The notes under the pieces: generated by a model
What the model saw: the letters and a program-made list of their open reading frames with translations, nothing else
Told to the model about the DNA's origin: nothing
Database searches by the model: none
DNA from: Terrimonas alba
GTDB taxonomy: Bacteria > Bacteroidota > Bacteroidia > Chitinophagales > Chitinophagaceae
Assembly (NCBI RefSeq): GCF_042434975.1
Contig: NZ_JBHMQM010000009.1
Span: 216,831 to 280,830 of the forward strand
Direction of reading: 5' to 3'
DNA length: 64,000 bases
Shown here: piece after piece, positions 2,862 through 35,115 of the stretch
Position numbering within the stretch: position 1 is the first letter of the stretch
Layout: each line of letters begins with the position of its first letter
Program-made: the position numbers and the translations under genes

Positions 2862-3926
2862 CTAAACTCTCCCCCGCTCCGCATACTGCTTCTCATAATA
2901 CCCCTGGTATTCCCCACTGGTCACATGCTTCAGCCATTCTGTGTTTTCTAAATACCAATCAATGGTCTGCGCAAGGCCTTCTTCAAAAGTTACCGAAGGT
3001 TTCCAGCCCAATTCCTTATTGATCTTGCTGGCGTCAATGGCATAACGGCGGTCATGGCCGGGACGATCTTTTACATAGGTGATCAGTTGCTCACTGGTGC
3101 CGGCAGAGTGACCAAGCTTTTCATCCATTAGCTTGCACAGCAGCTTTACCAGGTCGATATTAGTCCACTCATTAAAGCCGCCGATATTATAGGTGTCATG
3201 GGTTTTACCCTCATGAAATACGAGGTCAATCGCTGTCGCATGATCCTTAACAAATAACCAGTCCCTGGTGTAAAGTCCGTCGCCATAAACCGGCAAGGGC
3301 TTTTTCGTGATGATATTATTGATAAAAAGCGGAATCAGTTTTTCAGGGAAATGGTGGGGGCCGTAATTGTTAGAGCAATTGCTGATCACGGTGGGTAACC
3401 CATAGGTGTCTGCATAAGCTCGTACAAAATGGTCGCTGGCCGCTTTGGATGCACTGTAGGGCGAATGTGGATCATATTTCGTTTGCTCGGTAAAAAAACC
3501 GGTGCTGCCTAAGGCGCCATATACCTCGTCAGTGGAAACATGATAAAACAATTTACCCGTATAGTCATCTTTCCAAAAATGTTTCGCCGTGTTCAGCAGG
3601 TTTACTGTACCAATTACGTTGGTATAAACAAAGTCGAGCGGCGAAAGGATGGAACGGTCCACATGCGACTCTGCGGCGAGATGTATAATGCCATCGGGTT
3701 GATGGAGCACAAAAATTCTTTCCAGGCTGTCCGCATCCAGTATATTGGCCTTTTCAAAATAATAATTGGGGGCTGATTCTATATCCCGGAGATTCTCCAG
3801 GTTGCCCGCATACGTCAGCGCATCTAAATTGATGATCTTATAGTCCGGGTATTTTGTAACAAATAAACGAACGACATGCGAACCGATAAAACCGGCTCCC
3901 CCTGTTATGATAATGGTTTTTGACAT
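2862..3926 (-). CDS. rfbB: dTDP-glucose 4,6-dehydratase
   Basis: 354 aa with TGGAGFIGSHVV, YSASKAASD (YxxxK) and the conserved RmlB C-terminus. Confidence 0.9.
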   Translation of the reverse strand: MSKTIIITGGAGFIGSHVVRLFVTKYPDYKIINLDALTYAGNLENLRDIESAPNYYFEKANILDADSLERIFVLHQPDGIIHLAAESHVDRSILSPLDFVYTNVIGTVNLLNTAKHFWKDDYTGKLFYHVSTDEVYGALGSTGFFTEQTKYDPHSPYSASKAASDHFVRAYADTYGLPTVISNCSNNYGPHHFPEKLIPLFINNIITKKPLPVYGDGLYTRDWLFVKDHATAIDLVFHEGKTHDTYNIGGFNEWTNIDLVKLLCKLMDEKLGHSAGTSEQLITYVKDRPGHDRRYAIDASKINKELGWKPSVTFEEGLAQTIDWYLENTEWLKHVTSGEYQGYYEKQYAERGRV

Positions 3927-5439: not shown

Positions 5440-7866
5440 TTACCTTTCTGCCTTTCTCCGAAACCATTTTTTGATACTTAATCTTTCCGTCCACCCTCTG
5501 GAAGGTTGTTCCTCCTCGTAATAGCCATTATTGCCATAGCCATAACCATAGCCGTAGCGGCCGTAGCCATAGTAGCCGTACCCGGCTTTCAATTTTACAT
5601 CATTTACCACGATTGCAACATGGGGCAGCTTCCTCTCCTGGTACAGGTCGTCAATCAATGCTATCTGCTTTTTAAAGGTATATCCCTGCCTCACCAGGTA
5701 GAGTGTACAATCGGCAAACTTACCCAGTGTTTGAGCATCGCTTACCATGCCCACCGGCGCCGTGTCGATAATGGTAACATCAAAATTTTCCCGCAACCAC
5801 GCAAAAAGTTCGGTCACTTTCTCGTCAAGCAACAACTCAGCCGGGTTGGGTGGAATGGGGCCGCAGGGCAATACAAAAAGGTTTTCATGACCGGATATCG
5901 GCAAAATCAAACTTTTCAGATCTGCCTTGCCTACCAGGAAATTGGAAATACCGGGATGCCTGCCCATATTCAAACCTGCCAGGACCTTTGGTTTACGAAT
6001 ATCAAATTCCAGGATGATGGTTTTTTTTCCCGTCAACGCCATCACGGCGCCCATATTCGTGCTCACAAAGGACTTGCCTTCCCCGCTAAAGGAGGAAGTG
6101 ACAAGAATTACCGGCTTTTCTGTTTTGGTTAACACGTACTGGAGGTTGGAACGGATAATCCTGAACTGCTCGGCCACCATGCGGCGGCTGGTTTTGTTCA
6201 CCACCAGGGCATTCTCCGAATAAGAGTGCCCCACCTCACCCATAATAGGCACCTGAGTTATCTTCTCAATATCAAAGCGGGTAGTAACTTTATCATTTAA
6301 TATTTCAGCGATAAAGATCACCAATGCCGGTAGCGCCAAACCTATCAAAACAGCCATAATCTGGATAGTGCGATCATTGGGCTTGACAGGATCAGATGAC
6401 GCTGTGGCCTTATCAACGATCTTAGAATTAGAGATAGTAGCCGCCCTGGAAATGGCAGCTTCTTCTCTCTTTCCTTCCAGCAGGCTGTAGAGGGCGAGTT
6501 TGGTAGTAACCTGCCGTTCCAGGTCCACATACTCTTTCATCTTATAAGGCAGGGTCTCTAATTCACTTTCTTCGGATTGGGTCTGTCCTTTCAACCTGGA
6601 AATAGCATTGCTAAAAGAAGACTTGATATTTTGCAGGTTTTCCAGCACACTCTCCCGTTGCTGCTCGATCAGGGCCTCTGATTCTTTAACGGCGGGATTA
6701 TCCGGCGGTATATTGGATTCCAATAATGATTTTCGTGCCAATTGTGCTTTGTTATAGCCACTCACCAGTTCATTCAACGTCACATCTTCCAGGCCCAGCG
6801 AAGATGGAACAACTATTTTGCTGTATTGATTTTGTTTATCTCTCAGGTAATCATCGATCATGCCTGCCACCGAAAGCCGCATTTGTTGCTCATTGATCAG
6901 CTTGTCAGCCTCCATGATAGTTTGAAAGGAATTGGTCGACTGCGTTTCCACATTGATCAGCTTATTTTTCTGGCGATAGTCTAGTAAAATACCCTGTAAA
7001 CTGTCTAATTCACCTTTCAATTTATCCAGCCTCACGTCAATAAAACCAATCATCTGATCGGTGGAAAAATTATTCTGTTCAATCGTCAGGGAGTCATATT
7101 GAACCATTAAATTGTTGACTATATCAGCCGCCATTTGCGCATTAGTAGTTTCCATGCTAATAATAAGCCCGGTCCCGCTCACTTTTGGCGTCACGTTTAC
7201 AGCAGCAGCGAGGCTCGTAGCAACTGCCTCGATAGGTCTCCACCCGATTTCATATTCCGTACCGGTGACGGCACCGCCTTTCTTTTCTAGGGCAAATACG
7301 CCATATTTATTTTTAAATACCTGGCCAAAACCTATCTCAGTTGATTCATGATTAACATAGAACCTGTTTTCATCGTTGAACTTTATATTCATGCTGAATG
7401 ACCGGGAAGAATCATTTATTTCAAAAGCTTTGATCGTAAAAGGAGCTCTCTTATAAACATTTTCATCTTTTATTCTTCCGATCGCCGTGTAACTAAATTG
7501 CAAATCGAGTTTTTTGACCACCCTGGCCATCAATGGCCGGGACTTCAGAATTTCAATTTCGCTTTGAATATTTTCCGTCCGGTTATTTCCCATCAGGATA
7601 TCTTCCACCTTGTCGGACGAACGCCCGCCTCCTGAGACTTCACTTTTTATTTGCAGGCTACCGGCTGCACTATAAATACGCGTCGCATAACGCAGGTAAA
7701 CAAAAGCTATCAACAAAGCAAGGGCTACTGATAAAAGAAATACAGGCAGGAAACGAATATATTTATAGAACAGGTCCCTTACACTTAAATTTGACAATTC
7801 TGATTTGCCGTTGTTGGTAACCTGTTCCTCGATTATTACTTGCGATGAGTTTTCGGAAATAGCCAT
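5440..7866 (-). CDS. Polysaccharide co-polymerase / tyrosine autokinase (Wzc/GumC-like)
   Basis: 808 aa. An N-terminal transmembrane helix and a periplasmic coiled-coil region are present. A second TM helix follows. The C-terminal domain is a P-loop kinase. The C-terminal tail is tyrosine-rich (YGYGYYGYGRYGYGYGYG). Confidence 0.85.
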   Translation of the reverse strand: MAISENSSQVIIEEQVTNNGKSELSNLSVRDLFYKYIRFLPVFLLSVALALLIAFVYLRYATRIYSAAGSLQIKSEVSGGGRSSDKVEDILMGNNRTENIQSEIEILKSRPLMARVVKKLDLQFSYTAIGRIKDENVYKRAPFTIKAFEINDSSRSFSMNIKFNDENRFYVNHESTEIGFGQVFKNKYGVFALEKKGGAVTGTEYEIGWRPIEAVATSLAAAVNVTPKVSGTGLIISMETTNAQMAADIVNNLMVQYDSLTIEQNNFSTDQMIGFIDVRLDKLKGELDSLQGILLDYRQKNKLINVETQSTNSFQTIMEADKLINEQQMRLSVAGMIDDYLRDKQNQYSKIVVPSSLGLEDVTLNELVSGYNKAQLARKSLLESNIPPDNPAVKESEALIEQQRESVLENLQNIKSSFSNAISRLKGQTQSEESELETLPYKMKEYVDLERQVTTKLALYSLLEGKREEAAISRAATISNSKIVDKATASSDPVKPNDRTIQIMAVLIGLALPALVIFIAEILNDKVTTRFDIEKITQVPIMGEVGHSYSENALVVNKTSRRMVAEQFRIIRSNLQYVLTKTEKPVILVTSSFSGEGKSFVSTNMGAVMALTGKKTIILEFDIRKPKVLAGLNMGRHPGISNFLVGKADLKSLILPISGHENLFVLPCGPIPPNPAELLLDEKVTELFAWLRENFDVTIIDTAPVGMVSDAQTLGKFADCTLYLVRQGYTFKKQIALIDDLYQERKLPHVAIVVNDVKLKAGYGYYGYGRYGYGYGYGNNGYYEEEQPSRGWTERLSIKKWFRRKAER

Positions 7867-8693
7867 TAGTTAAAAATATTATAGAGCAAAGCAATCGCCG
7901 TAATAAGGCTTAAGCCAAAGCTGACCTGCCGCATCACGACATCTTGTTCGGCTTTCTTCGCTTTTCTTTTTGTAGGATCTACCACCACTACATCATTTTG
8001 TTGTAAATTATAATAAGGGGATTCGAACAGATCCCTGGATGAAAGATCGACCAATCCAACTTCCCGCTTTCCATCTGTTTCCCGCATCACTTTGACAGTA
8101 TTTTTCATTCCAAAATCAGTAGTACCGCCCGCCAGCCCTATCGCATCCAATAATGTCACCCTTTCTCCCGGCACACTAACGGGTCCCTGCCTATTTACCT
8201 CACCCAGCACGGTTACCTTTAAATTCATAAAACGAATAATGACAGATGGGTTTGTCAGCACCGAATCCTTTTCGTTGATCTTTCGTTTAATAGTATCTGC
8301 CAACTGCAGCTTCGTCAAACCTTCCACTTGAATCACGCCTAATTGAGGATACTCAATATTACCATTCACATCCACCAAAAAACCTCCGGTACCCGATCCC
8401 GAACCGCTGCTCCCCTGGCCACCCGAGGATGAACTTGATGAAGGCAGATTATAAGGCGCATCGGAAATTTCAGGCTTGGTACTAGCACTATATACCTGGA
8501 TAGATAAAAGGTCGTTTTTCTGAATTTTCAGCTCAGGAATTTTCACCTCACCTTTACCGGTACTGTCATTTACATGTTGCAGGTAATTGGGGATTCTACG
8601 CTGTGTGCCGCAGGAAATTAAGTAAAAAGATAACACAAGTAATACAAGAAGCCGGACAAATTTCATGGATGATATTTTAGTAGAAGCCCGCAA
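7866..8693 (-). CDS. Polysaccharide export outer-membrane lipoprotein (Wza family)
   Basis: 275 aa. A signal peptide with a lipobox Cys (LISCGT) and the Poly_export/SLBB architecture are present. There is a Ser/Gly-rich linker. The stop overlaps the wzc start. Confidence 0.8.
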   Translation of the reverse strand: MRASTKISSMKFVRLLVLLVLSFYLISCGTQRRIPNYLQHVNDSTGKGEVKIPELKIQKNDLLSIQVYSASTKPEISDAPYNLPSSSSSSGGQGSSGSGSGTGGFLVDVNGNIEYPQLGVIQVEGLTKLQLADTIKRKINEKDSVLTNPSVIIRFMNLKVTVLGEVNRQGPVSVPGERVTLLDAIGLAGGTTDFGMKNTVKVMRETDGKREVGLVDLSSRDLFESPYYNLQQNDVVVVDPTKRKAKKAEQDVVMRQVSFGLSLITAIALLYNIFN

Positions 8694-26669: not shown

Positions 26670-28166
26670 TTACTCCCCACTGATTTCTTCTTTTGACTTT
26701 GATTTCCACACCTTATGTTTTGCTCCATCCATCTTTACGATCTTCGGTGTAAACCTGCCCACGATGTCAACCAGGTGTTGCTGGCTCTTCATCACTACTT
26801 CGATGTCCTTATAAGCAAAAGGTGATTCATCTAAGCCGCCACCAATCAATTTTACACCGTGTTTTTGCAATTCATCTTTCAATTGTTTATCAGTAACCGA
26901 AGCCATGGCTTTGGTACGGCTCATTTTTCTTCCGGCGCCATGCGACGCAGAGTTGACAGAAGCTGCTTCCCCTTTACCCTTTACAATAAATCCATCCGCC
27001 GTCATTGAACCAGGAATAATTCCCAATACATCTTTACCGGCAGGTGTTGCTCCTTTACGATGAACGATCACTTCTTTCTTCCCCCCTTCGACTCCGCTCA
27101 GGCTTTCTTTCCAGGCAAAGTTGTGATGGTTCTCAACCATCTTTAAGGGTTTTCTTCCCAACTGCTTTGCAATTTTATCATGGATCACATGATGACAGGC
27201 TGATGCATAATCACCGGCAAGGTTCATCGCATGCCAGTATTCAATGCCTTCTTCTTCATCCAATGTCAGCCACGCCAGGTTTTTGGCGTCCTGCGGCAAA
27301 CGTCTTTTGCTAATGGCAAGCTTGGTGTAATGATTCGCAATATTTGCTCCCAGTGCTCTCGAACCGGAATGTGACAATAAGCCCACATACATTCCGGGAT
27401 CAATACCCAGCACTTCATCACTTTCTGCAATCTCAATTACACCAAACTCTACAAAGTGATTGCCTGACCCGGAAGAACCTAATTGTTTCCACGCCCTTCC
27501 ATGCAGGTTCTTCAATAAGGGCAATTGATAAAATATTTCATTGTCCATCACCTCATGATCAGCGGCACGGTCAAACTGTGCGCCGCTGCCAAACAGTGTA
27601 GCTTCATTGATCTCTCTTGCAAAATAGTTTTCTTTTTGCACCAGCTCCTTTGGATCAATATCAAATACACTCAGGCACATTCTGCAACCAATATCAACTC
27701 CTACTCCATAAGGGATCACAGCATTTTCTGTTGCCAGCACACCGCCAATCGGCAGGCCATAACCGCTGTGCGCATCGGGCATTAATGCGCCGGCGACAGC
27801 GATCGGTAATTTAGCCGCGGTGTACATCTGGTGCATGGCACCTTCCTCGATATGTTCCTGGCCGAAGACATTGAACTGGATGCCTGAATTATTTAATGAT
27901 AAGGCCCCCTCTAAATCTCCCCCGCCAGCCGGCGGGGAGACTTTTGAAGACTCCAATTGCTGTATAAGCTTTTCTGCTATTGTTGCCACTTTTGGATCAT
28001 CTTTAAATGCTCCTGGTTTCTCCAATATTCTCTTTAATATTTCCATCACTTCTTCCTTTGTATCATGTTTAAAATTCTTTTGCATTGTATTCATGGCAAT
28101 GCTGATCACCGGGCCTTCAGGGTAGCCGATGGATCGTAGTTCTTTTCCTTGTATTTTAAGTTTCAC
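26670..28166 (-). CDS. rtcB: RtcB-family RNA 3'-phosphate/2',3'-cyclic-phosphate ligase (long form, about 90-aa N-terminal extension)
   Basis: 498 aa. Conserved RtcB motifs are present: ...GSGNHFVEFG..., ...NHHNFAWKE..., ...SHGAGRKMSR.... These include the metal-binding His and Cys residues and GMP-His loop context. Confidence 0.9.
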   Translation of the reverse strand: MKLKIQGKELRSIGYPEGPVISIAMNTMQKNFKHDTKEEVMEILKRILEKPGAFKDDPKVATIAEKLIQQLESSKVSPPAGGGDLEGALSLNNSGIQFNVFGQEHIEEGAMHQMYTAAKLPIAVAGALMPDAHSGYGLPIGGVLATENAVIPYGVGVDIGCRMCLSVFDIDPKELVQKENYFAREINEATLFGSGAQFDRAADHEVMDNEIFYQLPLLKNLHGRAWKQLGSSGSGNHFVEFGVIEIAESDEVLGIDPGMYVGLLSHSGSRALGANIANHYTKLAISKRRLPQDAKNLAWLTLDEEEGIEYWHAMNLAGDYASACHHVIHDKIAKQLGRKPLKMVENHHNFAWKESLSGVEGGKKEVIVHRKGATPAGKDVLGIIPGSMTADGFIVKGKGEAASVNSASHGAGRKMSRTKAMASVTDKQLKDELQKHGVKLIGGGLDESPFAYKDIEVVMKSQQHLVDIVGRFTPKIVKMDGAKHKVWKSKSKEEISGE

Positions 28167-28177
28167 TAATTCGTATT

Positions 28178-30316
28178 TTAATTGTTATAAGAAATAGAAG
28201 GGGGGTCTGTTTTATCAGGTTTTACCAAACCTCTTTCTTCTAAAAATTTCATCCAGGCTTTTGCCCTGTCATCACTATGGCATGCATAAATTCCCTGCCA
28301 ACTACACAGTTTTTTGGGAAACCCTAACGTTGTTTTAAACTTCAATTCCAGCAGTTTAATAATTAGGTAAACGCCGTCCTCTCTTCTTCCTCCACCACCG
28401 CCGACAAATGCATCAACGACGTCATATTTAAGAACTTCATAAATACCTGGAAAGTATAAATTACCTGAATTATCAAAACAATTAATTCCTGTTGTCTTCA
28501 AGTAATATTCATACACTTCTTTTTCTGCCATCGAGGAATATAGATTAAGAAATTTTACGAGCTCTATGGAGTCTTGAATATTTACGCTAAACCCAAAATC
28601 ACTCTCAAGAAAATGAAATTTATCATACGTCTCCAATAAAGTATCCCCCATAAGAATTTTCATCGAAAGTCCTATCTGCTGATAACCTATTTTGCCGAAC
28701 AGTTCTTGCATCTCCCTCTTTTTGTCATCATCTTCTTTCTTACTAAACCTTATTGATTGGAATTTTACTTCCAAATTTTTGACGCCATACTGCCGGTTAT
28801 TTTCTCTCCCAACCCTTTCCCCTTTTAACTTCAAAGATGGAACTTGGCGATAAGTTCCAAGAATTTTATTTATTTGTTCCTTTATATCCCGATCATTTGT
28901 TGAATTTAAAATTGCCTTTAAGTTATTGATCGTTGCTTCAGAAGAATTCTCAAATTTCCGTCTATACTTATTGCAGATCCCAATGATACCTAGATCATCA
29001 AATAATTTTGCCTTCTTTAAGTACAACAACAAACTTTTTTTATCAGAACAAAGGGATTTCCACTTACGGGAATAAAATTTATCAAGGACTCTCCCAATAG
29101 AATAAGTAAGATCCCACTCTTGTCCATGAATCAACCCGTAGTATTCAATTGCCGTTACTGTTTCCAGGTTGAGATTTTCAATTATATAATTTTCAAGACG
29201 GTATCTGGACCTATAATTTAACTCTTGCTTTAATTTATTCAAGGAGTCTTCTAGCCATCCTTCAGCTTTATAAATTATTTGATTATCCCGGCAATACTGC
29301 GTCAACAAAACAGCTTGCCTTAAGAACTTATAAAGAAAAGTTGGTAACCGATGATTATTGTCAATATCATTTGCTTCATATTCTTTCGCTAAACTTTTAA
29401 CGACCGACGTATCCAACTGGATCAATTGCATATATGCATCTATAGCAATTGAATCCTCCTCCGAGTTTAATAACCCAAACAAAATTTCCTCCCTTAATTT
29501 ATCCTCAGCTTCGTCTTTAATGTTCTCAAAAAAATTCTTCTCGTTATTCCATCTATAATCTGCATAATGATTTACCCAGTAAATCAGATAATTCAACCTC
29601 GCTGTTGCATAATAGTCATCCTTGTAAAGAAATGTGGTCTTTCCATTTCCATCAGGTACTCCCAAATCCAGATGCGTAAGACTTTTCATCAAATCAAGAA
29701 ACTCCTCGTTATCAGAATCATATCGGTTAAACCTGGACCTATTCCTGTACCATGCGGAAGCGATCCACATCAGGGCCTGAGGGTCTTTGTTTAATAATAA
29801 ACCGTCTATTTGATTCTCATAGTACCAATCAGGATATGGAGATCTGACGACGGTTGTATCTATGCGTTCTAAATCGAATGTCGAAAGATTCTTTAACTGA
29901 TACACCGTTTTTCGTCTTCCAATTTGAGTGATAAGAAATCTACCGCTCAAATCATCAAATTCGACCCTTCCGCTATTCAAAACTTTCAAAAAACTCTCAG
30001 AAGATATGGTTGAATCTATCTTTAACTCATCATCATCGAATAAACAGTTTTCCTCAACTATTCTAATTGCTATACCTCTTGCTGTATTCGGATAGAGATG
30101 GTAGCCTAAAAATTCCTGAACAAAAGTGGTGTCGTCAAGGAATTTTGCCATCTCTTTTAATGATTCAATGTTTCCTTTTATGACTCCATCCTCAATTTTA
30201 TATAGATTAGATTTCAAATCATTTCTTTGAGAATGACTTGAAAAAACAATTGCTATCATGGAAAACAGAAGAATAATTTTCTTCATAAGCCAGAGTTGAT
30301 TCTTTAAATTAAACAT
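28178..30316 (-). CDS. Large secreted hypothetical protein, AT-rich (foreign-looking), co-oriented 11 nt upstream of rtcB
   Basis: 712-aa ORF. The probable start is MKKIILLFSMIAIVFSSHSQ (signal peptide). The sequence is rich in N, K, Y and E with no recognised domain. GC content is markedly lower than in neighbouring genes. Confidence 0.6.
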   Translation of the reverse strand: MFNLKNQLWLMKKIILLFSMIAIVFSSHSQRNDLKSNLYKIEDGVIKGNIESLKEMAKFLDDTTFVQEFLGYHLYPNTARGIAIRIVEENCLFDDDELKIDSTISSESFLKVLNSGRVEFDDLSGRFLITQIGRRKTVYQLKNLSTFDLERIDTTVVRSPYPDWYYENQIDGLLLNKDPQALMWIASAWYRNRSRFNRYDSDNEEFLDLMKSLTHLDLGVPDGNGKTTFLYKDDYYATARLNYLIYWVNHYADYRWNNEKNFFENIKDEAEDKLREEILFGLLNSEEDSIAIDAYMQLIQLDTSVVKSLAKEYEANDIDNNHRLPTFLYKFLRQAVLLTQYCRDNQIIYKAEGWLEDSLNKLKQELNYRSRYRLENYIIENLNLETVTAIEYYGLIHGQEWDLTYSIGRVLDKFYSRKWKSLCSDKKSLLLYLKKAKLFDDLGIIGICNKYRRKFENSSEATINNLKAILNSTNDRDIKEQINKILGTYRQVPSLKLKGERVGRENNRQYGVKNLEVKFQSIRFSKKEDDDKKREMQELFGKIGYQQIGLSMKILMGDTLLETYDKFHFLESDFGFSVNIQDSIELVKFLNLYSSMAEKEVYEYYLKTTGINCFDNSGNLYFPGIYEVLKYDVVDAFVGGGGGRREDGVYLIIKLLELKFKTTLGFPKKLCSWQGIYACHSDDRAKAWMKFLEERGLVKPDKTDPPSISYNN

Positions 30317-30488
30317 TCATATATCATCTTACCTGATGATTCTTTGTTAAAGATTACACAAGCTTTTTGACTATTGCCCAATAGCGAAGAACCCTGAAGT
30401 GTGCGATGCTTCGGCTTCGCTCTGCACAGGCTACACAGCCGATGCCATTAGCACTGCAGCCGGAGACATAAATATTTTCTTCACTGAT

Positions 30489-31316
30489 CTATTCAAACAC
30501 AACCGTCTTATTATTATATACAAACACCCGGTCTTCAAACAACATCTTCAGCGCTTTGGCCAATACGGCCTTTTCAATTTCCTTGCCGGCAGTTACCATA
30601 GCAGCAGGTGTAAACGTATGATTGACCGGTATGATCTGCTGTTCAATAATGGGCCCTTCATCAAGATTATTGGTTACAAAATGCGCCGTAGCACCGATCA
30701 GTTTCACCCCGCGGATAAAGGCCTGCCGGTAAGGATTGGCCCCCACGAATGCCGGTAAAAATGAATGATGGATATTGATGATATTCGGCGGGTGTTTGGC
30801 TATAAACTCCGGCGACAATATCCGCATAAACTTGGCCAGCACCAGGTAATCGTATTCATACTGCTTCAAGTGATGTTCCAGCTCCGCTTCAAACTGCTCT
30901 TTGCTTTTCTGTTCATGACTGACATGTATAAACGGCACACCGAATCTTTCACATATATCCTGCAGCACAGCATGATTGCCGATAACAGCCTGTACCCGGG
31001 CGCCCAATGTTTTGAAATGATTGCGTATTAAAATATCACCGAGGCAGTGATACTCCTTTGTCACCATCACCACTATTTTCTTTTCGGGCTGGGGGTTTAC
31101 TGTAATAGCCGCATCAGCAGGCAGTACTGCCTTTAATTCATCATACAGTTTGCCGGCATCGGAATGCGAATCGGTTGCCAGTCTTAAAAAAAACTGTCCT
31201 TCGATGGTGTCCACATGTTCCCGCATGGAAAGTATGTTGATGCCATTGCCGGCCATCACCTGCGCAATAACCGCTACCAACCCAACCTTGTCTTTGCACT
31301 GAATAAGAATGATCAT
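30489..31316 (-). CDS. purU: Formyltetrahydrofolate deformylase
   Basis: 275 aa. The N-terminal ACT domain (MIILIQCKDKVGLVAVIAQVMAG) and the formyltransferase domain (...IINIHHSFLPAFVGANPY...) are present. Confidence 0.85.
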   Translation of the reverse strand: MIILIQCKDKVGLVAVIAQVMAGNGINILSMREHVDTIEGQFFLRLATDSHSDAGKLYDELKAVLPADAAITVNPQPEKKIVVMVTKEYHCLGDILIRNHFKTLGARVQAVIGNHAVLQDICERFGVPFIHVSHEQKSKEQFEAELEHHLKQYEYDYLVLAKFMRILSPEFIAKHPPNIINIHHSFLPAFVGANPYRQAFIRGVKLIGATAHFVTNNLDEGPIIEQQIIPVNHTFTPAAMVTAGKEIEKAVLAKALKMLFEDRVFVYNNKTVVFE

Positions 31317-31450: not shown

Positions 31451-32551
31451 CTATTTAGGCGGCACGAAGATCTGCTTCAACTGTTCTACCAGCATGCCAT
31501 TGCCGCTTACACTGATGCTGCTGATCTTATCTGCGATTGTTGAGACGTATTCCATCTCTTTCAGCTTCCACAGCATCGCATTTTCTTCCATCAGTTTGGC
31601 AGTGTTCAGCAGGCTACGGGTACTTGCAGTTTCCTCACGACGCATGATAGTATTAGCCTGCGCTTTCTTCTCAGCGATCAATACCTGGTTCATGATCTTC
31701 TTTACATCACCCGGCAGGATGATATCACGGATACCAAAACCATTTACCTCCACACCCAATGCAACTGCTTTTTCCTTTACCTGTTGCAGGACGAAAGGAG
31801 CAATCGCTTCTTTCTTTTCCAGCAACTCATCAAAACTGTAACCAGCTACATATTCACGCAGTGCCAGTTGAAAAGCCACATACAATTGCTTATCGTACTC
31901 TTTGTTCATCAACACGGCTTTTTCAATATCAGCCACCTTGTACTGCGCCCAGGCATTGATACGCAAAGCAGCCTTGTCCCTGGTCAGGATTTCCTGGCCA
32001 TTTATTTCCAGCTGCTGCTGACGCATATCCACCCGTGCAATATGAACGGCAATATTGTTCTTCCACCAATAATATACACCGCTATTCAGCACTTTATCAA
32101 ACTTACCGTTAATAAACAGCACAGCCTTTTCATAGCTCTCAACACTTAGGTTACGAACATAAGGCGCTACATATTTGCTCATCAAAACGGACCGGTCTAT
32201 GTTTTCAGTGATTTCGATCTTACTGATATCAGCACGAACAAAATCATACTGAACAACTGATTTCCAGAAAGTGTAACGACCAGCGGTCAATACCTGTTTT
32301 AGCAAACCATTTTCATACTGCAAAACAATCTCGTTGTCTCCAACTTCTACTACATGCAGAATGTCTGCCAGTATAGCGTCCTTCAGCAGGATGTTCAGTT
32401 CAACCGGCGCAATGAACGGCCTGGTCACATCATAGAGGTACACATTTTCATTTTTCCAGAACCAATACTTACCGGTCAGCAATACACGCTGATAAGCTCC
32501 ATTCTTAAATACCAGCGCTACCTGGTATTCGTTTACTTTTACTCTTTTCAT
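31451..32551 (-). CDS. SPFH/band-7 domain protein with three N-terminal repeats of about 45 aa
   Basis: 366 aa. The C-terminal half is a prohibitin (PHB) domain (...LRINAWAQYKVADIEKAV...GVEVNGFGIRDIILPGDV...). The N-terminus carries a repeated GxYxxVLLTGKYWFWKN-like module three times. Confidence 0.7.
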   Translation of the reverse strand: MKRVKVNEYQVALVFKNGAYQRVLLTGKYWFWKNENVYLYDVTRPFIAPVELNILLKDAILADILHVVEVGDNEIVLQYENGLLKQVLTAGRYTFWKSVVQYDFVRADISKIEITENIDRSVLMSKYVAPYVRNLSVESYEKAVLFINGKFDKVLNSGVYYWWKNNIAVHIARVDMRQQQLEINGQEILTRDKAALRINAWAQYKVADIEKAVLMNKEYDKQLYVAFQLALREYVAGYSFDELLEKKEAIAPFVLQQVKEKAVALGVEVNGFGIRDIILPGDVKKIMNQVLIAEKKAQANTIMRREETASTRSLLNTAKLMEENAMLWKLKEMEYVSTIADKISSISVSGNGMLVEQLKQIFVPPK

Positions 32552-32567: not shown

Positions 32568-32618
32568 CACAGATGAACACAGATTTACACAGATTTACAC
32601 AGATTTACACAGATGATC
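32568..32618. repeat. Tandem 10-bp repeats (CACAGATTTA x3, flanked by two degenerate copies), 17-67 bp upstream of the SPFH gene start
   Basis: cacagatgaa/cacagattta/cacagattta/cacagattta/cacagatgat. Each minus-strand copy (TAAATCTG) is one mismatch from the Bacteroidetes -7 box TAnnTTTG. Confidence 0.6.
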
Positions 32619-32969
32619 ATTTATGGCTGTTCAAAATTTTTTTAATAAAGTCAATGTTGCTCATCACCCGGTAATCGCGGAAAAAGATTTCAATCATGCT
32701 TTCTATACCAGTTTGTCATCACTCAACTGCCGGGATGTTCACAACAGTTTTACAATGAAAAAGTGATACATTCCACATGATTGTTTACCTGCCTGCAGGT
32801 GCTTACCAGGTTGCAGCATTTCCAAAACTTTCCCATTCAAGGTACTCGTTCTTTCAAGTCCTCATCATGATACATTACTGCATCATATCAGGAAGTCATA
32901 GGCCTTACTGCCGATAAACAACATTGACTTTAATTTCTCTCACCATTTGAGAAGTGGTGTACTTCTTTT

Positions 32970-33050
32970 CCTCTACATTATCAGTGTAGTGCTCTAACCA
33001 ACTGAGCTATCCAGATTATGAGCCTGGAGCAGGAGTCGAACCTGCGACCC
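32970..33050 (-). ncRNA. Circularly permuted tRNA-Ile(GAU)-like element: T-arm, loop-closed acceptor hairpin, D-arm, anticodon-like hairpin
   Basis: The minus strand reads GGGTC-GCAGGTTCGACTCCTGC (perfect T-arm with TTCGACT loop), then TCCAG-gctcataat-CTGGA (acceptor strands joined by a loop), then TA-GCTCAGTTGGTTAGAGC (consensus D-arm), then A-CTACACTGATAATGTAG (anticodon stem-loop with anticodon GAT). The order 3' half then 5' half is not a standard tRNA. Confidence 0.4.
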
Positions 33051-33086
33051 TTGTTTGCGTCTACCTTTTCGCCATCATGACTTATC

Positions 33087-33110
33087 GTGAGTAGGATTCG
33101 AACCTACACG
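33087..33110 (-). ncRNA. Second tRNA-like T-arm minihelix
   Basis: The minus strand reads CGTG-TAGGTTCGAATCCTA-CTCACG, a perfect T-arm (loop TTCGAAT) coaxially extended by CGTG/CACG. No D-arm partner is present. Confidence 0.25.
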
Positions 33111-33337
33111 TCTGTGGTCAGACAAACTAGTGGGGATTACATATTGCTGCAACAGCATACAGCGGGTTACTACTGCTGCACTATGGTGTTTCTTTGAAAC
33201 ACTCATCCGGTTTGCTGTCAACATGCAAATTCCCATCTTGCCGTTAAGCAAGCTTTTGTGTTGATTTGAAATCAACAATATTGTCAAGAACTTTGTCTAC
33301 ACCATGATTTGAGAAGATTAGTCACGGTTCAGACTTT

Positions 33338-34414
33338 TTAATTCATCAACTCTGCCTGTCGCCTGAATCCGACCACTTCTGTTTTTTCAATAGGCTGAGT
33401 TTTCTCGTTTGGATTTGCGATCTCAGCGATGGTCATCGGCTGATTGATTACCGTATCAAATCCAAAGTGCTTTGATAACCGTTGTGCCTTTTTTATTCCC
33501 AGTTTTTCAAATTCATATTTGGCGATCAATCTTCCTTTTCGCAACAGGGCATTGTCCACCATCGTCAGCGAACTGTTGAACGTACAGATCAGTTGCACAT
33601 TCAGAAAATCTGCCAGCAGGCCGTCAGAAATATTCAACAGGTTCGACACCGACGAACTGCTGTTGTGTCTTCTGTCCATGATGATATTCTCCGCATCTTC
33701 AATAATCAAAACAGTGTTCGGATTGTCGATCAGCAGTTCGATAAAGTCAGGGTTCATCAGGTTGCCTGCAACCGATGGAGACAAGAACAACACTCTTTTT
33801 TTGATCTTACCCACCAGGTAGCGCAGGTAAGTCGTTTTACCTGTACCCGGCAACCCGTGAAGCAACACAATGCCTTTATCATTCTTCTGGCTTAGCCTAT
33901 TCCTGATCACTTCATCTGTTTCTTTAAAATCATCTTCATAAAAAAGATCAAGGTCCAGTTTTGTCCGTTTAATCTCCATCGCTTTCAACCCCAGTTGATT
34001 CCTGTTCTGCACAATCAGGTTGATCTCGAGTGGTTGCCTTCGCTGTCTTTCTTTGAACTGTATAGCAATCATAAAAATTGCTTCTACCAATTCCGGTTGC
34101 TGACCGTCATGCAGGATCTCGCAATAATAATCATCCACCTCCAGCACAATATTTTTATTCATAATGATGATCGTCTTGTCAAACTCAAACCGCTTTTTAG
34201 CCTTCTTGTACCATCTCGTTTGGTGAATGTTTGCTATACTGCCTGCAAACTTTTCCCTGATCGCGGCAAAGGCTTTTTCTCCATTGATCTGCCCGATATA
34301 ATTTATACTCGGTAGCAGGTTGAAGCTGTACAGGTAAAGCATTTTAGCATCCAGGAAGGAATCGGTAAACACGTTGTTGGCGCTGATCACTTTCTGGTTA
34401 TATAGATTGTCCAT
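33338..34414 (-). CDS. Classical-clade AAA ATPase with a family-specific N-terminal domain of about 140 aa
   Basis: 358 aa. The Walker A motif is LLHGLPGTGKTT, the Walker B motif is VLIIEDAE, and the second region of homology (SRH) is LLRKGRL. The N-domain is homologous to the stand-alone ORF at 35282-35701. Confidence 0.8.
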   Translation of the reverse strand: MDNLYNQKVISANNVFTDSFLDAKMLYLYSFNLLPSINYIGQINGEKAFAAIREKFAGSIANIHQTRWYKKAKKRFEFDKTIIIMNKNIVLEVDDYYCEILHDGQQPELVEAIFMIAIQFKERQRRQPLEINLIVQNRNQLGLKAMEIKRTKLDLDLFYEDDFKETDEVIRNRLSQKNDKGIVLLHGLPGTGKTTYLRYLVGKIKKRVLFLSPSVAGNLMNPDFIELLIDNPNTVLIIEDAENIIMDRRHNSSSSVSNLLNISDGLLADFLNVQLICTFNSSLTMVDNALLRKGRLIAKYEFEKLGIKKAQRLSKHFGFDTVINQPMTIAEIANPNEKTQPIEKTEVVGFRRQAELMN

Positions 34415-34529: not shown

Positions 34530-35039
34530 TTAGGGGTTTACCACTTTATTTGCACAATTGGAACTCGCAAAAGCTTCCGGCTTGGCTTTGAAAGCAAAGC
34601 CCATCCCAACGATATAACCCATGGCTTCTTTCAATGCATCATTGCTTTTGAAGTTAGGGTTGGTGTTGATGTCGGCATGCACTTCCAAATCCACACTGTA
34701 GCGGGAAAAGATATTGCACAGGTCAAAAGCCACTTCAATGCTCTTACCCACTTCCACCAGCATCCGTTGTTTGATACTCATCTTTTGTTGAGTGATCTCA
34801 TTATGCATATACATGAAACCGCCCTTTCCTTTCCGGATGAATACGATCACGGTGGCAAACTCAATGATCTTTCCTTTTACCTGGCTATCGGTACCGATGC
34901 ATACTTTCAGCTCATGACCAGCTTCTCTTTCACGCATCAATACATTAGTTACTTCTTCGGCAATAGGAATTTTAATTCGTTCGCCGTTTAATTTTCTCCA
35001 TTTCTGCTGTACCTGTTCCATTGTTTTATCATTTATCAT
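34530..35039 (-). CDS. DUF458 / YkuK-like RNase H-fold protein
   Basis: 169 aa. The family-characteristic motif is KVCIGTDSQVKGKIIEFATVIVF. It is co-directional and immediately upstream of the AAA ATPase gene. The true start may be M7, because a tRNA-like gene ends only 4 nt upstream. Confidence 0.55.
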   Translation of the reverse strand: MINDKTMEQVQQKWRKLNGERIKIPIAEEVTNVLMREREAGHELKVCIGTDSQVKGKIIEFATVIVFIRKGKGGFMYMHNEITQQKMSIKQRMLVEVGKSIEVAFDLCNIFSRYSVDLEVHADINTNPNFKSNDALKEAMGYIVGMGFAFKAKPEAFASSNCANKVVNP

Positions 35040-35043
35040 TCAG

Positions 35044-35115
35044 CACGGGTTGAAGGATTCGAACCCTCATCCACAGATTTGGAGTCTGTGATGTTAGCCA
35101 TTACAATAAACCCGT
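35044..35115 (-). tRNA. tRNA-Trp(CCA)-like gene with no encoded CCA and a weak D-stem
   Basis: The minus strand reads ACGGGTT-TA-TTGT-AATGGCTA-ACAT-C-ACAGA-CTCCAAA-TCTGT-GGAT-GAGGG-TTCGAAT-CCTTC-AACCCGT-G. The acceptor stem is perfect at 7 bp, U8 and A9 are present, the anticodon loop is CU-CCA-AA, the T-loop is canonical and the discriminator is G73. The D-stem has one mismatch. Confidence 0.55.

Follow-up and report, generated by a model that had tools for sequence, protein, structure and literature searches.

The window analysed here is a stretch of 64,000 nucleotides from the Terrimonas alba genome (contig NZ_JBHMQM010000009.1), which contains, on its minus strand, a cluster of genes connected with RNA repair and, between the AAA ATPase and slipin genes of that cluster, a conserved structured RNA. 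The main loci are as follows.

26670..28166, minus strand: RtcB RNA ligase gene (Pfam RtcB, E = 2.2e-80)
31451..32551, minus strand: slipin/SPFH (Band-7) gene, an obligate neighbour on the downstream side of the RNA (Pfam Band_7, E = 1.9e-33)
32643..33276, minus strand: the whole conserved structured RNA, ~630 nt (nhmmer, full-length alignment and covariation; limits predicted)
33338-34414, minus strand: AAA ATPase gene, upstream of the RNA (Pfam; order conserved in relatives)
34530-35039, minus strand: DUF458/RNase H-like gene, upstream (Pfam; order conserved in relatives)
35043..35115, minus strand: tRNA-Trp(CCA) gene (ARAGORN)

The cluster also holds two LigT-like phosphoesterases. The tRNA-Trp(CCA) gene is the sole intact survivor in T. 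alba of a tRNA array present in relatives, where the arrays at this place comprise up to 16 tRNAs and are rich in those for Asp, Gln, His, Arg, Lys, Asn, Tyr and Glu. Relatives of the Band-7 protein are annotated as 'slipin family protein', and no evident N-terminal hydrophobic segment was noticed in the T. alba protein when judged by eye. The first-pass annotation had described a small element without RtcB company at this locus. RtcB is in fact encoded 4.8 kb downstream on the same strand, with slipin as the immediate neighbour, and was detected in 63 of 80 related loci; relatives have it downstream of both the RNA and slipin. A search with PADLOC and NCBIfam returned no named system for the DUF458, AAA, slipin or RtcB genes. 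A candidate defence pair, PDC-M30, was noted in the region.

The nhmmer search with the RNA region revealed matches in 54 of the 80 related loci, on the strand of the AAA gene and extending from about position 10 to 650 of the query. The entire 786-nt intergenic region between the AAA and slipin genes houses one conserved structured RNA, which had been overlooked; the element of about 80 nt previously regarded as free-standing turned out, by homology search, alignment and covariation, to be a single domain of this ~630-nt molecule. The RNA was located directly 5' of slipin and on the same strand in every related locus whose contig reaches slipin. Loci lacking slipin also lacked the RNA, which was seen only beside an intact slipin gene, and in three loci the RNA and the slipin N-terminus had been deleted together. 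A protein-coding reading of the region was rejected, as it offers just a 70-aa TTG ORF and is contradicted by single-base indels and compensatory changes. No Rfam family corresponds to the ~630-nt RNA. Scanning of the minus strand for sigma-70 promoters and intrinsic terminators gave none, and Bacteroidota may use other promoter types.

The T. alba RNA is predicted from the alignments to be composed of two tandem tRNA-shaped modules together with a 5' domain, an H-type pseudoknot and a 3' domain. The tRNA-like region, all on the minus strand, comprises the following features.

33110..33123, minus strand: stub hairpin GTCTG-ACCA-CAGAC (by comparison with related loci L006, L008, L119 and L049)
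33057..33107, minus strand: tRNA-like module A, without anticodon arm (46.5 bits with covariance model R1 at 33056-33110; match to the T-loop motif)
33107-33091, minus strand: module A T-arm
33090-33075, minus strand: module A capped acceptor hairpin, with one mismatch
33072-33057, minus strand: module A D-arm of Leu/Ser type, GCG-AAAAGGTAGA-CGC
32991..33050, minus strand: tRNA-like module B, consisting of a variable-loop remnant GGGTC, T-arm, capped acceptor hairpin, U8-A9 and D-arm
33045-33029, minus strand: module B T-arm GCAGG-TTCGACT-CCTGC
33028-33010, minus strand: module B capped acceptor hairpin TCCAG(G)-loop-(T)CTGGA
33007-32991, minus strand: module B D-arm GCTC-AGTTGGTTA-GAGC, preceded by TA (U8-A9)
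32973..32989, minus strand: anticodon-stem-loop mimic CTACA-CTGATAA-TGTAG (helix 9; 5 of 5 stem pairs covary, 97.9% paired)

Module B and the adjoining anticodon-arm mimic make up the element originally flagged, and its T-arm, capped acceptor stem, D-arm and anticodon-like hairpin are all present at 32973-33050 on the minus strand as described. The five Watson-Crick pairs of the acceptor stem also held, with a G.U pair to be added, thus giving a stem of 6 bp with a loop of 7 nt instead of 9. The minimum-free-energy fold reproduced these four hairpins; the folding energy of the element was unremarkable (z = -0.37) and is uninformative as evidence.

The alignment of orthologous loci from 28 Chitinophagaceae relatives showed 95.6% pairing in the stems of the tRNA-like region, with compensatory changes at 32 of 42 pairs. 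Slid alignments used as a control were only 40-48% paired, and none of 500 shuffles matched the observed values. Within module B, helices 5-8 were 89-99% paired with compensatory changes, and the module scored 68.4 bits with the generic module covariance model R1. As this model also gives ~18-44 bits at gene junctions in tRNA arrays, only matches above ~45 bits were counted as modules in Chitinophagaceae. The T-loop motif GGTTCGANTCC occurs three times in the window (0.06 copies expected). U8, A14, part of the G run in the D-loop and the T-loop were invariant or almost so across relatives, and each module keeps the T-arm, the D-arm and the bases which presumably lock a tRNA into its L shape. 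On these comparative grounds, the flagged sequence is best described as a genuine, selected tRNA mimic whose acceptor stem carries a loop as a cap and thus offers no end for aminoacylation.

The anticodon loop was compared in 101 RNAs, in which Y32, U33, R37 and A38 were kept and positions 34-36 varied. The Ile specificity assigned earlier does not hold, since the triplet changes freely among relatives and CTGATAA was present in just 13 of the 101 loops. In some variants (L128, L095 and L194), the anticodon arm is entirely absent.

Module A, also overlooked at first, lies at 33107-33057, 10 nt upstream of the flagged module. The position of the stub hairpin is occupied in loci L006 and L008 by a 4-5 bp closing stem enclosing a first tRNA-like module, and loci L119 and L049 carry a plain hairpin there, as T. 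alba does; comparison of these sequences indicates that the first module of relatives appears to have been lost in T. alba. Modules have been gained, lost or swapped for plain hairpins among relatives, hence their exact number is not critical. An inter-module pairing of acceptor strands (the 3' strand of hairpin 1 with the 5' strand of hairpin 2), an idea which came from a 41.7-bit Rfam tRNA match in L008, was not supported, with 63.3% pairing against 60.1% in shuffles.

The remaining domains of the RNA comprise the features below.

33260..33276, minus strand: variable-sequence hairpin GTTGATTTCAAATCAAC just past the AAA stop codon (a hairpin of different sequence there in relatives)
33131..33252, minus strand: 5' domain (RNAalifold, 29 sequences: 32 pairs, 16 with compensatory changes)
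33252-33237, minus strand: 5'-domain hairpin CTTGC-TTAAC-GGCAAG
33235-33229 with 33137-33131, minus strand: helix enclosing the 5' domain
33202-33186, minus strand: 5'-domain hairpin
33184-33152, minus strand: invariant junction of the 5' domain, GTGCAG...CTGTATGCTG
32941..32965, minus strand: H-type pseudoknot (exact 4-nt complementarity in 46 of 52 RNAs with the hairpin, 7 covarying variants)
32965-32951, minus strand: pseudoknot hairpin GAAGT-ACACC-ACTTC
32643..32931, minus strand: 3' domain, ~290 nt (RNAalifold, 27 sequences: 59 pairs, 49 with compensatory changes)
32931-32919 with 32659-32647, minus strand: long-range helix closing the 3' domain, AAAGTCAATGTTG with CAACATTGACTTT
32801-32791, minus strand: conserved CACCTGCAGGC of the 3' domain
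32682-32660, minus strand: UUCCG...GGUG region of the 3' domain

The hairpin at 33260..33276, which has no U-tract and was not called as a terminator, is possibly part of the RNA; if it belongs instead to the 3' end of the AAA gene, the 5' limit of the RNA could be 33252. The 5'-domain pattern gave 0 matches against viral contigs. In the pseudoknot, CACC of the loop pairs with GGTG (32944-32941) over an A-rich linker. The pseudoknot is located directly downstream of the flagged element and had been overlooked there. The long-range helix closing the 3' domain terminates at ...GGCUUUAUUA, 20-90 nt ahead of the slipin start codon.

The same cassette order, with a tRNA-like RNA followed by slipin and then RtcB, was found in Photobacterium, Burkholderia and Subdoligranulum, and about one quarter of complete E. 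coli genomes contain a slipin island preceded by a related element.

The tRNA-mimicking RNA may act as a partner of the slipin-RtcB repair machinery, a reading based on gene linkage which we adopt with middling confidence. It is supported by the presence of RtcB in most related loci, LigT and the tRNA arrays nearby, as well as by the linkage to slipin and the same position of the RNA in Photobacterium, Burkholderia and Subdoligranulum, and by the earlier prediction of a Band-7-associated tRNA-like RNA beside RtcB (10.1101/312249). The turnover of modules among relatives counts against it. The tRNA-shaped domains would dock proteins recognising the shape of tRNA, for example the RtcB ligase and enzymes of end healing or modification, and the 5' domain, pseudoknot and 3' domain would attach to the slipin oligomer or to the AAA/DUF458 proteins. 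Such an assembly might keep broken tRNAs in place or present them for resealing, in the way that Y RNA serves as an adapter between Ro60 and its effector, YrlA biology being used here as the comparison for a tRNA-mimicking RNA (PMC4201824). A more far-reaching proposal, offered tentatively as a possibility, is that large ornate bacterial RNAs of this kind (~550-650 nt) form a class not described before, whose members nucleate the assembly of slipin (SPFH) around RtcB into a vault-like or Ro-like RNA-repair particle. The swappable tRNA-shaped modules and the generic mimic of the anticodon loop would serve as a bait or sensor for tRNA-cleaving toxins, and the permuted modules might have arisen from Proteobacterial tandem canonical units via re-pairing of neighbouring acceptor strands.

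Another explanation is that the RNA acts in cis as a leader and damage sensor, forming the 5' UTR of the slipin-RtcB transcript: tRNA-damaging agents would cut or bind the tRNA-shaped domains, the 3' domain would refold and the repair genes would be turned on. The RNA always immediately precedes slipin and shares its strand, in Proteobacteria and Firmicutes too, which is in line with such a role, and the strict order and the distance of ~20-90 nt to the start codon fit a leader as well as they fit a partner of the repair machinery. The closing helix of the 3' domain ends shortly before that codon, the anticodon loop retains the generic shape of a nuclease substrate, and no RtcR-type regulator was present among the Pfam-scanned ORFs of the cluster. 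However, an RNA of ~630 nt with several independent domains is far above known leaders in size, no terminator/anti-terminator alternative was found on the minus strand, and the start codon is set apart from the RNA by a 10-bp tandem repeat and additional sequence in T. alba and in some of its relatives. We regard a leader as rather unlikely, though deserving serious consideration.

The capped mimics could also be decoys absorbing tRNA-targeting toxins (e.g., anticodon nucleases) and so shielding the real tRNAs, with the neighbouring tRNA array and RtcB meanwhile replacing or resealing the damaged ones. Such a function would agree with the free positions 34-36 of the anticodon loop, which differ between species, with the composition of the arrays in relatives, whose isoacceptors we take to be the targets of colicin E5, colicin D, PrrC and zymocin, and with the candidate PDC-M30 pair. 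Against it, one or two mimics per transcript would be outnumbered by the cellular tRNA pool unless the RNA was very abundant, the anticodon arm is missing in the variants mentioned above, and the strict coupling to slipin is left unexplained. A decoy is improbable.

The similarity to YrlA was evaluated with the Rfam model (RF02553), which recognised the T-arm, acceptor and D-arm core of the flagged module at 32991-33049 (E = 1.5e-5, 36.6 bits; model positions 27-81) and module 1 of L008 (E = 2.8e-5, 33.2 bits), where the alignment takes in the 4-bp closing stem. Both scores are below the gathering score of 69, and model positions 1-22 and 86-114 were unmatched in the window and L008 (1-26 and 82-114 in the window), these ends being presumably the Ro60-binding helix. 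Pfam scanning of 30 window ORFs, among them the cluster genes and all ORFs of 400 aa or more, detected no TROVE/Ro60 domain. The YrlA-type label thus captured the tRNA-like core, but the RNA is not a member of that family. Nor is the topology exactly that of YrlA, as had been claimed: YrlA has a closing stem where a tRNA has its anticodon arm, whereas the flagged module keeps a local anticodon hairpin. The definition of YrlA places it on the strand of Ro60 and within 4 kb of that gene (PMC4201824). It is very improbable, despite the alignment of the model to the core, that the RNA is a true Y RNA of the YrlA type with a Ro60 (Rsr) partner encoded elsewhere in the genome.

The chance that the element is a circularly permuted tRNA-Ile gene, cut and religated (e.g., by RtcB) into a working tRNA, or a decaying tandem duplication, is close to negligible: the D-arm and anticodon arm do resemble tRNA-Ile(GAU) and RtcB is nearby, but the anticodon is unconserved and the acceptor stem (4-7 bp, its cap varying in length) has neither discriminator nor CCA. 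In place of the free 7-bp acceptor with a 3' end and the conserved anticodon of a functional tRNA, a capped acceptor and a variable triplet were found, and ARAGORN called no tRNA at the element. The Rfam tRNA model matched 32944-33016 with 33.3 bits, above the threshold of 29; the canonical reading of this segment, pairing the acceptor 5' strand with the downstream UCAAAUG, was nevertheless rejected, as it was paired in 42.3% against 42.9% in shuffles. Decay of a tandem tRNA-Ile duplication, the alternative put forward earlier, is excluded by the 95.6% pairing with compensatory changes, conserved in at least 28 genomes, and the nearest relative, T. pollutisoli, has the same permuted module at this place and no intact tRNA-Ile.

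For YrlA as well as the predicted Band-7-associated tRNA, the tRNA-mimicking RNAs of RtcB repair operons, a mechanism has yet to be demonstrated. What is new here is a richly covarying, alignable version of the Band-7-associated RNA with defined domains, represented by more than 170 natural sequence variants, among which natural 'deletion mutants' have one or two modules, with or without the anticodon arm. The repair targets of slipin-RtcB systems, and the use of the tRNA shape as a handle, thereby become accessible to direct experiment. The slipin islands of E. coli, with their related element, may provide a genetically tractable model. The RNA is a candidate new Rfam family and a candidate large bacterial RNA of unknown function.

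Among known systems, GOLLD and ROOL resemble this RNA in being noncoding RNAs of several hundred nucleotides with many covarying helices near tRNA arrays; no resemblance in sequence or structure was detected with the Rfam models (GOLLD 14.4 bits against a gathering score of 150, ROOL no match). In tmRNA and the 3' tRNA-like structures of plant viruses, a tRNA-shaped domain with a free, aminoacylatable acceptor end is joined to a pseudoknot, and the T. alba RNA similarly has an H-type pseudoknot, with an A-rich linker, after a tRNA-shaped domain. No tmRNA, including two-piece and permuted forms, was identified by ARAGORN or Rfam, and there was no tag reading frame. Circularly permuted tRNA genes occur in Cyanidioschyzon merolae, some green algae and Thermofilum, where they mature to functional tRNAs; we know of no bacterial case. 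They share with the present modules the placement of the 3' half (T-arm and acceptor 3' strand) ahead of the 5' half in DNA, but have conserved anticodons and processed acceptor ends, whereas here the anticodon is variable and the cap is part of the conserved fold. With YrlA, the likeness extends to the domain order (T-arm, loop-capped acceptor stem, D-arm), the closing stem in place of the anticodon arm in module 1 of relatives, and the coding in RtcB-containing repair operons with a proposed aid to RNA ligation. The differences are the tandem modules, a length about five times that of the 114-position YrlA model, a score of about half the threshold, and the lack of a Ro-binding helix and, among the window ORFs scanned, of a Ro60 gene.

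The closest counterpart is the Band-7-associated tRNA-like RNA (b7a-tRNA) beside RtcB, which was predicted in 2016 by Burroughs and Aravind, as cited in the preprint 10.1101/312249; there, tRNA-like RNAs are proposed to help ligation, and the Band-7-associated RNA is given as being without experimental validation as of 2018. This preprint was the only literature found linking slipin/SPFH/Band-7 to a tRNA-like RNA or RtcB. The T. alba RNA is likewise tRNA-like and adjacent to a Band-7/SPFH gene in a cluster with RtcB, and is set alongside the 2016 RNA by its description in that preprint. Regarding the strong resemblance to authentic tRNA described there, all arms are present and the Rfam tRNA threshold is passed, with canonical acceptor pairing at the level of shuffles. 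Two tRNA-like units per RNA are common to both. In the Proteobacterial cassettes examined, the tandem units follow the canonical order and score 42-54 bits with the Rfam tRNA model, above its threshold, whereas in Chitinophagaceae the acceptor stems are closed locally in a permuted topology, canonical pairing being unsupported, and the units lie within a much larger RNA with a 5' domain, pseudoknot and 3' domain. We infer that the T. alba RNA is the Chitinophagaceae form of the slipin/Band-7-associated tRNA-like RNA.

The permuted tRNA-like element on the minus strand, taken in the first-pass annotation for an isolated 80-nt unit, proved to be part of a conserved spacer RNA of about 630 nt. 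Its arms had been described accurately, as every one of them was read at 33050-32973:

start of 33050-32973, minus strand: variable-loop remnant GGGTC
33045-33029, minus strand: T-arm GCAGG-TTCGACT-CCTGC
33028-33010, minus strand: capped acceptor hairpin TCCAGG-CTCATAA-TCTGGA
33007-32991, minus strand: D-arm GCTC-AGTTGGTTA-GAGC, preceded by U8-A9
32989-32973, minus strand: 5-bp/7-nt hairpin CTACA-CTGATAA-TGTAG, preceded by A26

In the hairpin at 33028-33010, a loop connects the two acceptor strands, which form five Watson-Crick pairs and one G.U pair. ARAGORN called a single tRNA, the tRNA-Trp at 35043-35115, and none at this element. Rfam at gathering thresholds detected the tRNA-Trp and a 33.3-bit tRNA match at 32944-33016, and the YrlA model, run in E-value mode, aligned to 32991-33049 (36.6 bits, E = 1.5e-5, model positions 27-81 of 114). 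The T-loop motif GGTTCGANTCC occurred in three copies in the window against 0.06 expected, with the second copy only 62 nt upstream of the first. The alignment of both Rfam models and the covariation of the stems supported the idea of a tRNA mimic.

A Pfam scan placed the RNA in a gene cluster lying entirely on the minus strand, in the following order:

two LigT-like 2',3'-cyclic phosphodiesterase family genes, minus strand
PA0069-family radical SAM gene, minus strand
37847-39768, minus strand: TcmP/DUF5131 pair
two small ORFs, minus strand
35133-35196, minus strand: decayed tRNA-like sequence
35043-35115, minus strand: tRNA-Trp
DUF458 (RNase H-like) gene, minus strand
33338-34414, minus strand: AAA ATPase gene
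786-nt intergenic region carrying the RNA
31451-32551, minus strand: slipin/SPFH (Band-7) gene
PurU-like gene, minus strand
712-aa ORF with no Pfam match, minus strand
26670-28166, minus strand: RtcB gene

The AAA ATPase matched a protein of Terrimonas alba (Chitinophagaceae) at 100% identity. The element had been thought to lack the company of RtcB, which was wrong, as RtcB is encoded in the same cluster, and the most telling neighbor, the Band-7 gene, had been overlooked. The TcmP (GMT-wHTH) and DUF5131 pair, an insertion in T. alba between the radical SAM gene and the tRNA region, matched the candidate anti-phage system PDC-M30 (A: 3.3e-93, B: 1.4e-127), with the DUF5131 protein scoring slightly better on PDC-M41B (3e-129). 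The PurU-like gene and the 712-aa ORF, whose N-terminus is hydrophobic and signal-peptide-like, were inserted between slipin and RtcB in T. alba (28178-31316, minus strand) and were absent from this position in most relatives. In the RtcB protein, the Pfam RtcB domain covered residues 113-477 and was preceded by an extra N-terminal stretch of about 110 residues, and the RtcB genes of relatives opened with the same extension (M..KLKLTGK.LRSIGYPEGPV...). In 71 loci, the tblastn matches of a 139-aa ORF at 35282-35701 (minus strand) fell on the N-terminal region of the AAA gene, and the ORF looks like a paralogue of the N-terminal domain of the AAA protein. A tandem repeat with a 10-bp unit, CACAGATTTA, separates the RNA 3' end from the start codon of slipin, with 4.7 copies on the plus strand (32568-32614). 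Similar repeats occurred in two related loci (L004 and L028), and the repeat may bind a regulator or act as a promoter element.

Scanning one genome per species with the AAA-homologue alignment yielded 80 loci (L001-L080), nearly all from Chitinophagaceae. In most of them, a simple pattern search found two tandem copies of a module (T-arm, capped acceptor hairpin and D-arm) downstream of the AAA gene. In an nhmmer search with the T. alba intergenic query, 54 of the 80 loci gave matches on the AAA strand. These spanned about 640 of the 730 nt of the query, and therefore the whole spacer is one conserved element, which in the window lies on the minus strand between about 33276 and 32643.

The module region of 28 sequences was aligned and ten helices were defined by the analyst: the closing stem, T1, acceptor 1, D1, T2, acceptor 2 (two helices), D2, the anticodon-like stem and a pseudoknot hairpin. 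The helices were 95.6% paired, with changes on both sides in 32 of 42 pairs. These values were reached in 0 of 500 shuffles, and sliding the partners by 1-3 columns reduced pairing to 40-48%. U8, A14, part of the D-loop G run and the T-loop GTTCRANYC, which we take to be the bases giving tRNA its L shape, were invariant or nearly so. Downstream of the modules, the loop of the hairpin GAAGU-ACACC-ACUUC pairs with GGUG beyond an A-rich linker, forming an H-type pseudoknot. The hairpin was found in 52 RNAs, 46 of which kept the exact 4-nt complementarity, in seven covarying variants (CACC/GGTG, CAGC/GCTG, CATC/GATG, GGCC/GGCC, CGCC/GGCG, CACT/AGTG and TGCC/GGCA). Compensatory changes were also detected in 16 of 32 predicted pairs of the 5' domain and in 49 of 59 of the 3' domain, the latter closed in T. 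alba by a 13-bp long-range helix (32931-32919 with 32659-32647). The RNA is a selected multi-domain fold. Two alternative pairings were unsupported: the canonical acceptor derived from the Rfam tRNA match was paired at 42.3% versus 42.9% in shuffles, and hairpin-to-hairpin pairing of acceptors between modules at 63.3% versus 60.1%. The permuted topology with a capped acceptor is therefore the selected one.

The fold varied in a modular way. The 5'-domain pattern matched at least 120 metagenome contigs and none of the viral contigs searched. Among 117 RNAs with a recognizable pseudoknot, the T-arm pattern found two arms in 99; in the other 18 it found one, and some of these are two-module RNAs whose T-loop is degenerate (L007, L031). 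The variants comprised:

single module with an anticodon arm: L163, L179, L185
plain hairpin instead of module 1: L119, L049
second module cut down to a T-arm and an acceptor hairpin: L128, L095, L194

T. alba is itself a variant, with a stub GTCTG-ACCA-CAGAC (33123-33110) where relatives have module 1 within the closing stem. Next come a module whose D-arm is of the Leu/Ser type (33107-33057) and the flagged module, in that order. A generic-module covariance model found exactly two modules in the window, the flagged one and that at 33107-33057 (68.4 and 46.5 bits). The standard two-module form is present in T. pollutisoli, the nearest relative, whose second module is nearly identical to the flagged one.

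The anticodon-like loop was tabulated for 101 distinct RNAs with the hairpin, from genomes and metagenomes:

position 32: pyrimidine, 85%
position 33: U, 75%
positions 34-36: no preference except G at 51% of position 34
position 37: purine, 97%
position 38: A, 86%

The Ile-like CTGATAA of T. alba was the commonest loop, yet it accounted for only 13 of the 101; therefore, the generic anticodon-loop architecture is kept and the anticodon identity is not.

The RNA was directly followed on the same strand by an intact slipin gene wherever the contig extended that far, and loci with AAA or DUF458 directly before RtcB had neither. In L023, L034 and L037, most of the slipin gene was gone and a C-terminal fragment was left. 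In L023 (about 8530-8620), the start of the 5' domain was fused to this fragment, which indicates that the RNA and the slipin N-terminus were co-deleted. RtcB was present in 63 of the 80 loci. Just upstream of DUF458-AAA, some 1-2.5 kb before the AAA gene, relatives had tRNA-gene arrays with as many as 16 members, in which Asp, Gln, His, Arg(ACG), Ile, Lys, Asn, Tyr, Ser(GCU) and Phe were abundant. At this site (35043-35196) T. alba has only the tRNA-Trp and a decayed tRNA-Phe(GAA)-like remnant with a truncated T-arm (35133-35196, 23.3 bits).

The tRNA-shaped domains of the RNA cannot be charged. Genetically, the RNA cannot be separated from slipin, and it lies in an RNA end-healing/sealing gene cluster beside tRNA arrays. 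Most likely, it would act as the RNA partner of a slipin-RtcB repair assembly, much as a Y RNA does for Ro60. Proteins recognizing tRNA shape would use the tRNA-shaped domains as handles, and other domains may make contact with slipin or with AAA and DUF458. In the main rival explanation, the RNA would serve the slipin-RtcB genes as a cis-acting leader or sensor, which the invariant position directly 5' of slipin fits equally well. A decoy against anticodon nucleases is a possibility compatible with the other roles. A decoding tRNA-Ile was excluded, since the loop lacks anticodon identity. The molecule offers a concrete handle on the Band-7/RtcB RNA-repair systems, so far unvalidated.

An RNA of this size with such rich covariation and tandem tRNA mimics is unusual, and no family in Rfam 15 matched it. 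No description of it was found in literature searches. A 2018 preprint on the structure of YrlA (10.1101/312249) cites a prediction by Burroughs and Aravind (2016) of a Band-7-associated tRNA-like RNA beside RtcB, which as of 2018 lacked validation. YrlA occasionally adjoins a Band-7 protein (10.1101/312249). YrlA is defined by a tRNA-like domain, a Ro60-binding helix and a location within 4 kb of a same-strand TROVE gene (PMC4201824). Of these, the T. alba RNA has the tRNA-like domain alone, and it is not a YrlA member; no TROVE/Ro60 domain was detected among 30 window ORFs scanned with Pfam (the cluster genes and every ORF of at least 400 aa).

Full-length slipin homologues from other phyla (35-42% identity) were also compared. 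In Photobacterium, Burkholderia and Subdoligranulum, the order was tRNA-like RNA, slipin and RtcB, with the tRNA-like units before the cassettes at 3665-3816 (L204), 3190-3325 (L203), 3427-3555 (L205) and 6650-6740 (L082), some of them with 4- or 6-nt anticodon loops. In Burkholderia and Subdoligranulum, RtcB was followed by an ORF sharing an N-terminal motif with an annotated E. coli nucleotidyltransferase. An E. coli slipin island without RtcB was present in 1425 of 5426 complete genomes; beside lysC (L081, CP061233.1, 6700-10000) it encodes slipin, the nucleotidyltransferase and a zeta-toxin-family protein, with a T-arm (TGGG-TTCGATT-CCCA) and a capped hairpin about 190 nt upstream of slipin, where no RNA is annotated. 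In the Proteobacteria examined, the tRNA-like units were in canonical order, scoring 42-54 bits, above the Rfam tRNA threshold, and two such units abut in Photobacterium. Among the slipin-associated tRNA-like RNAs, that of T. alba is best regarded as the Chitinophagaceae form, with a YrlA-like permuted topology and much extra structure.
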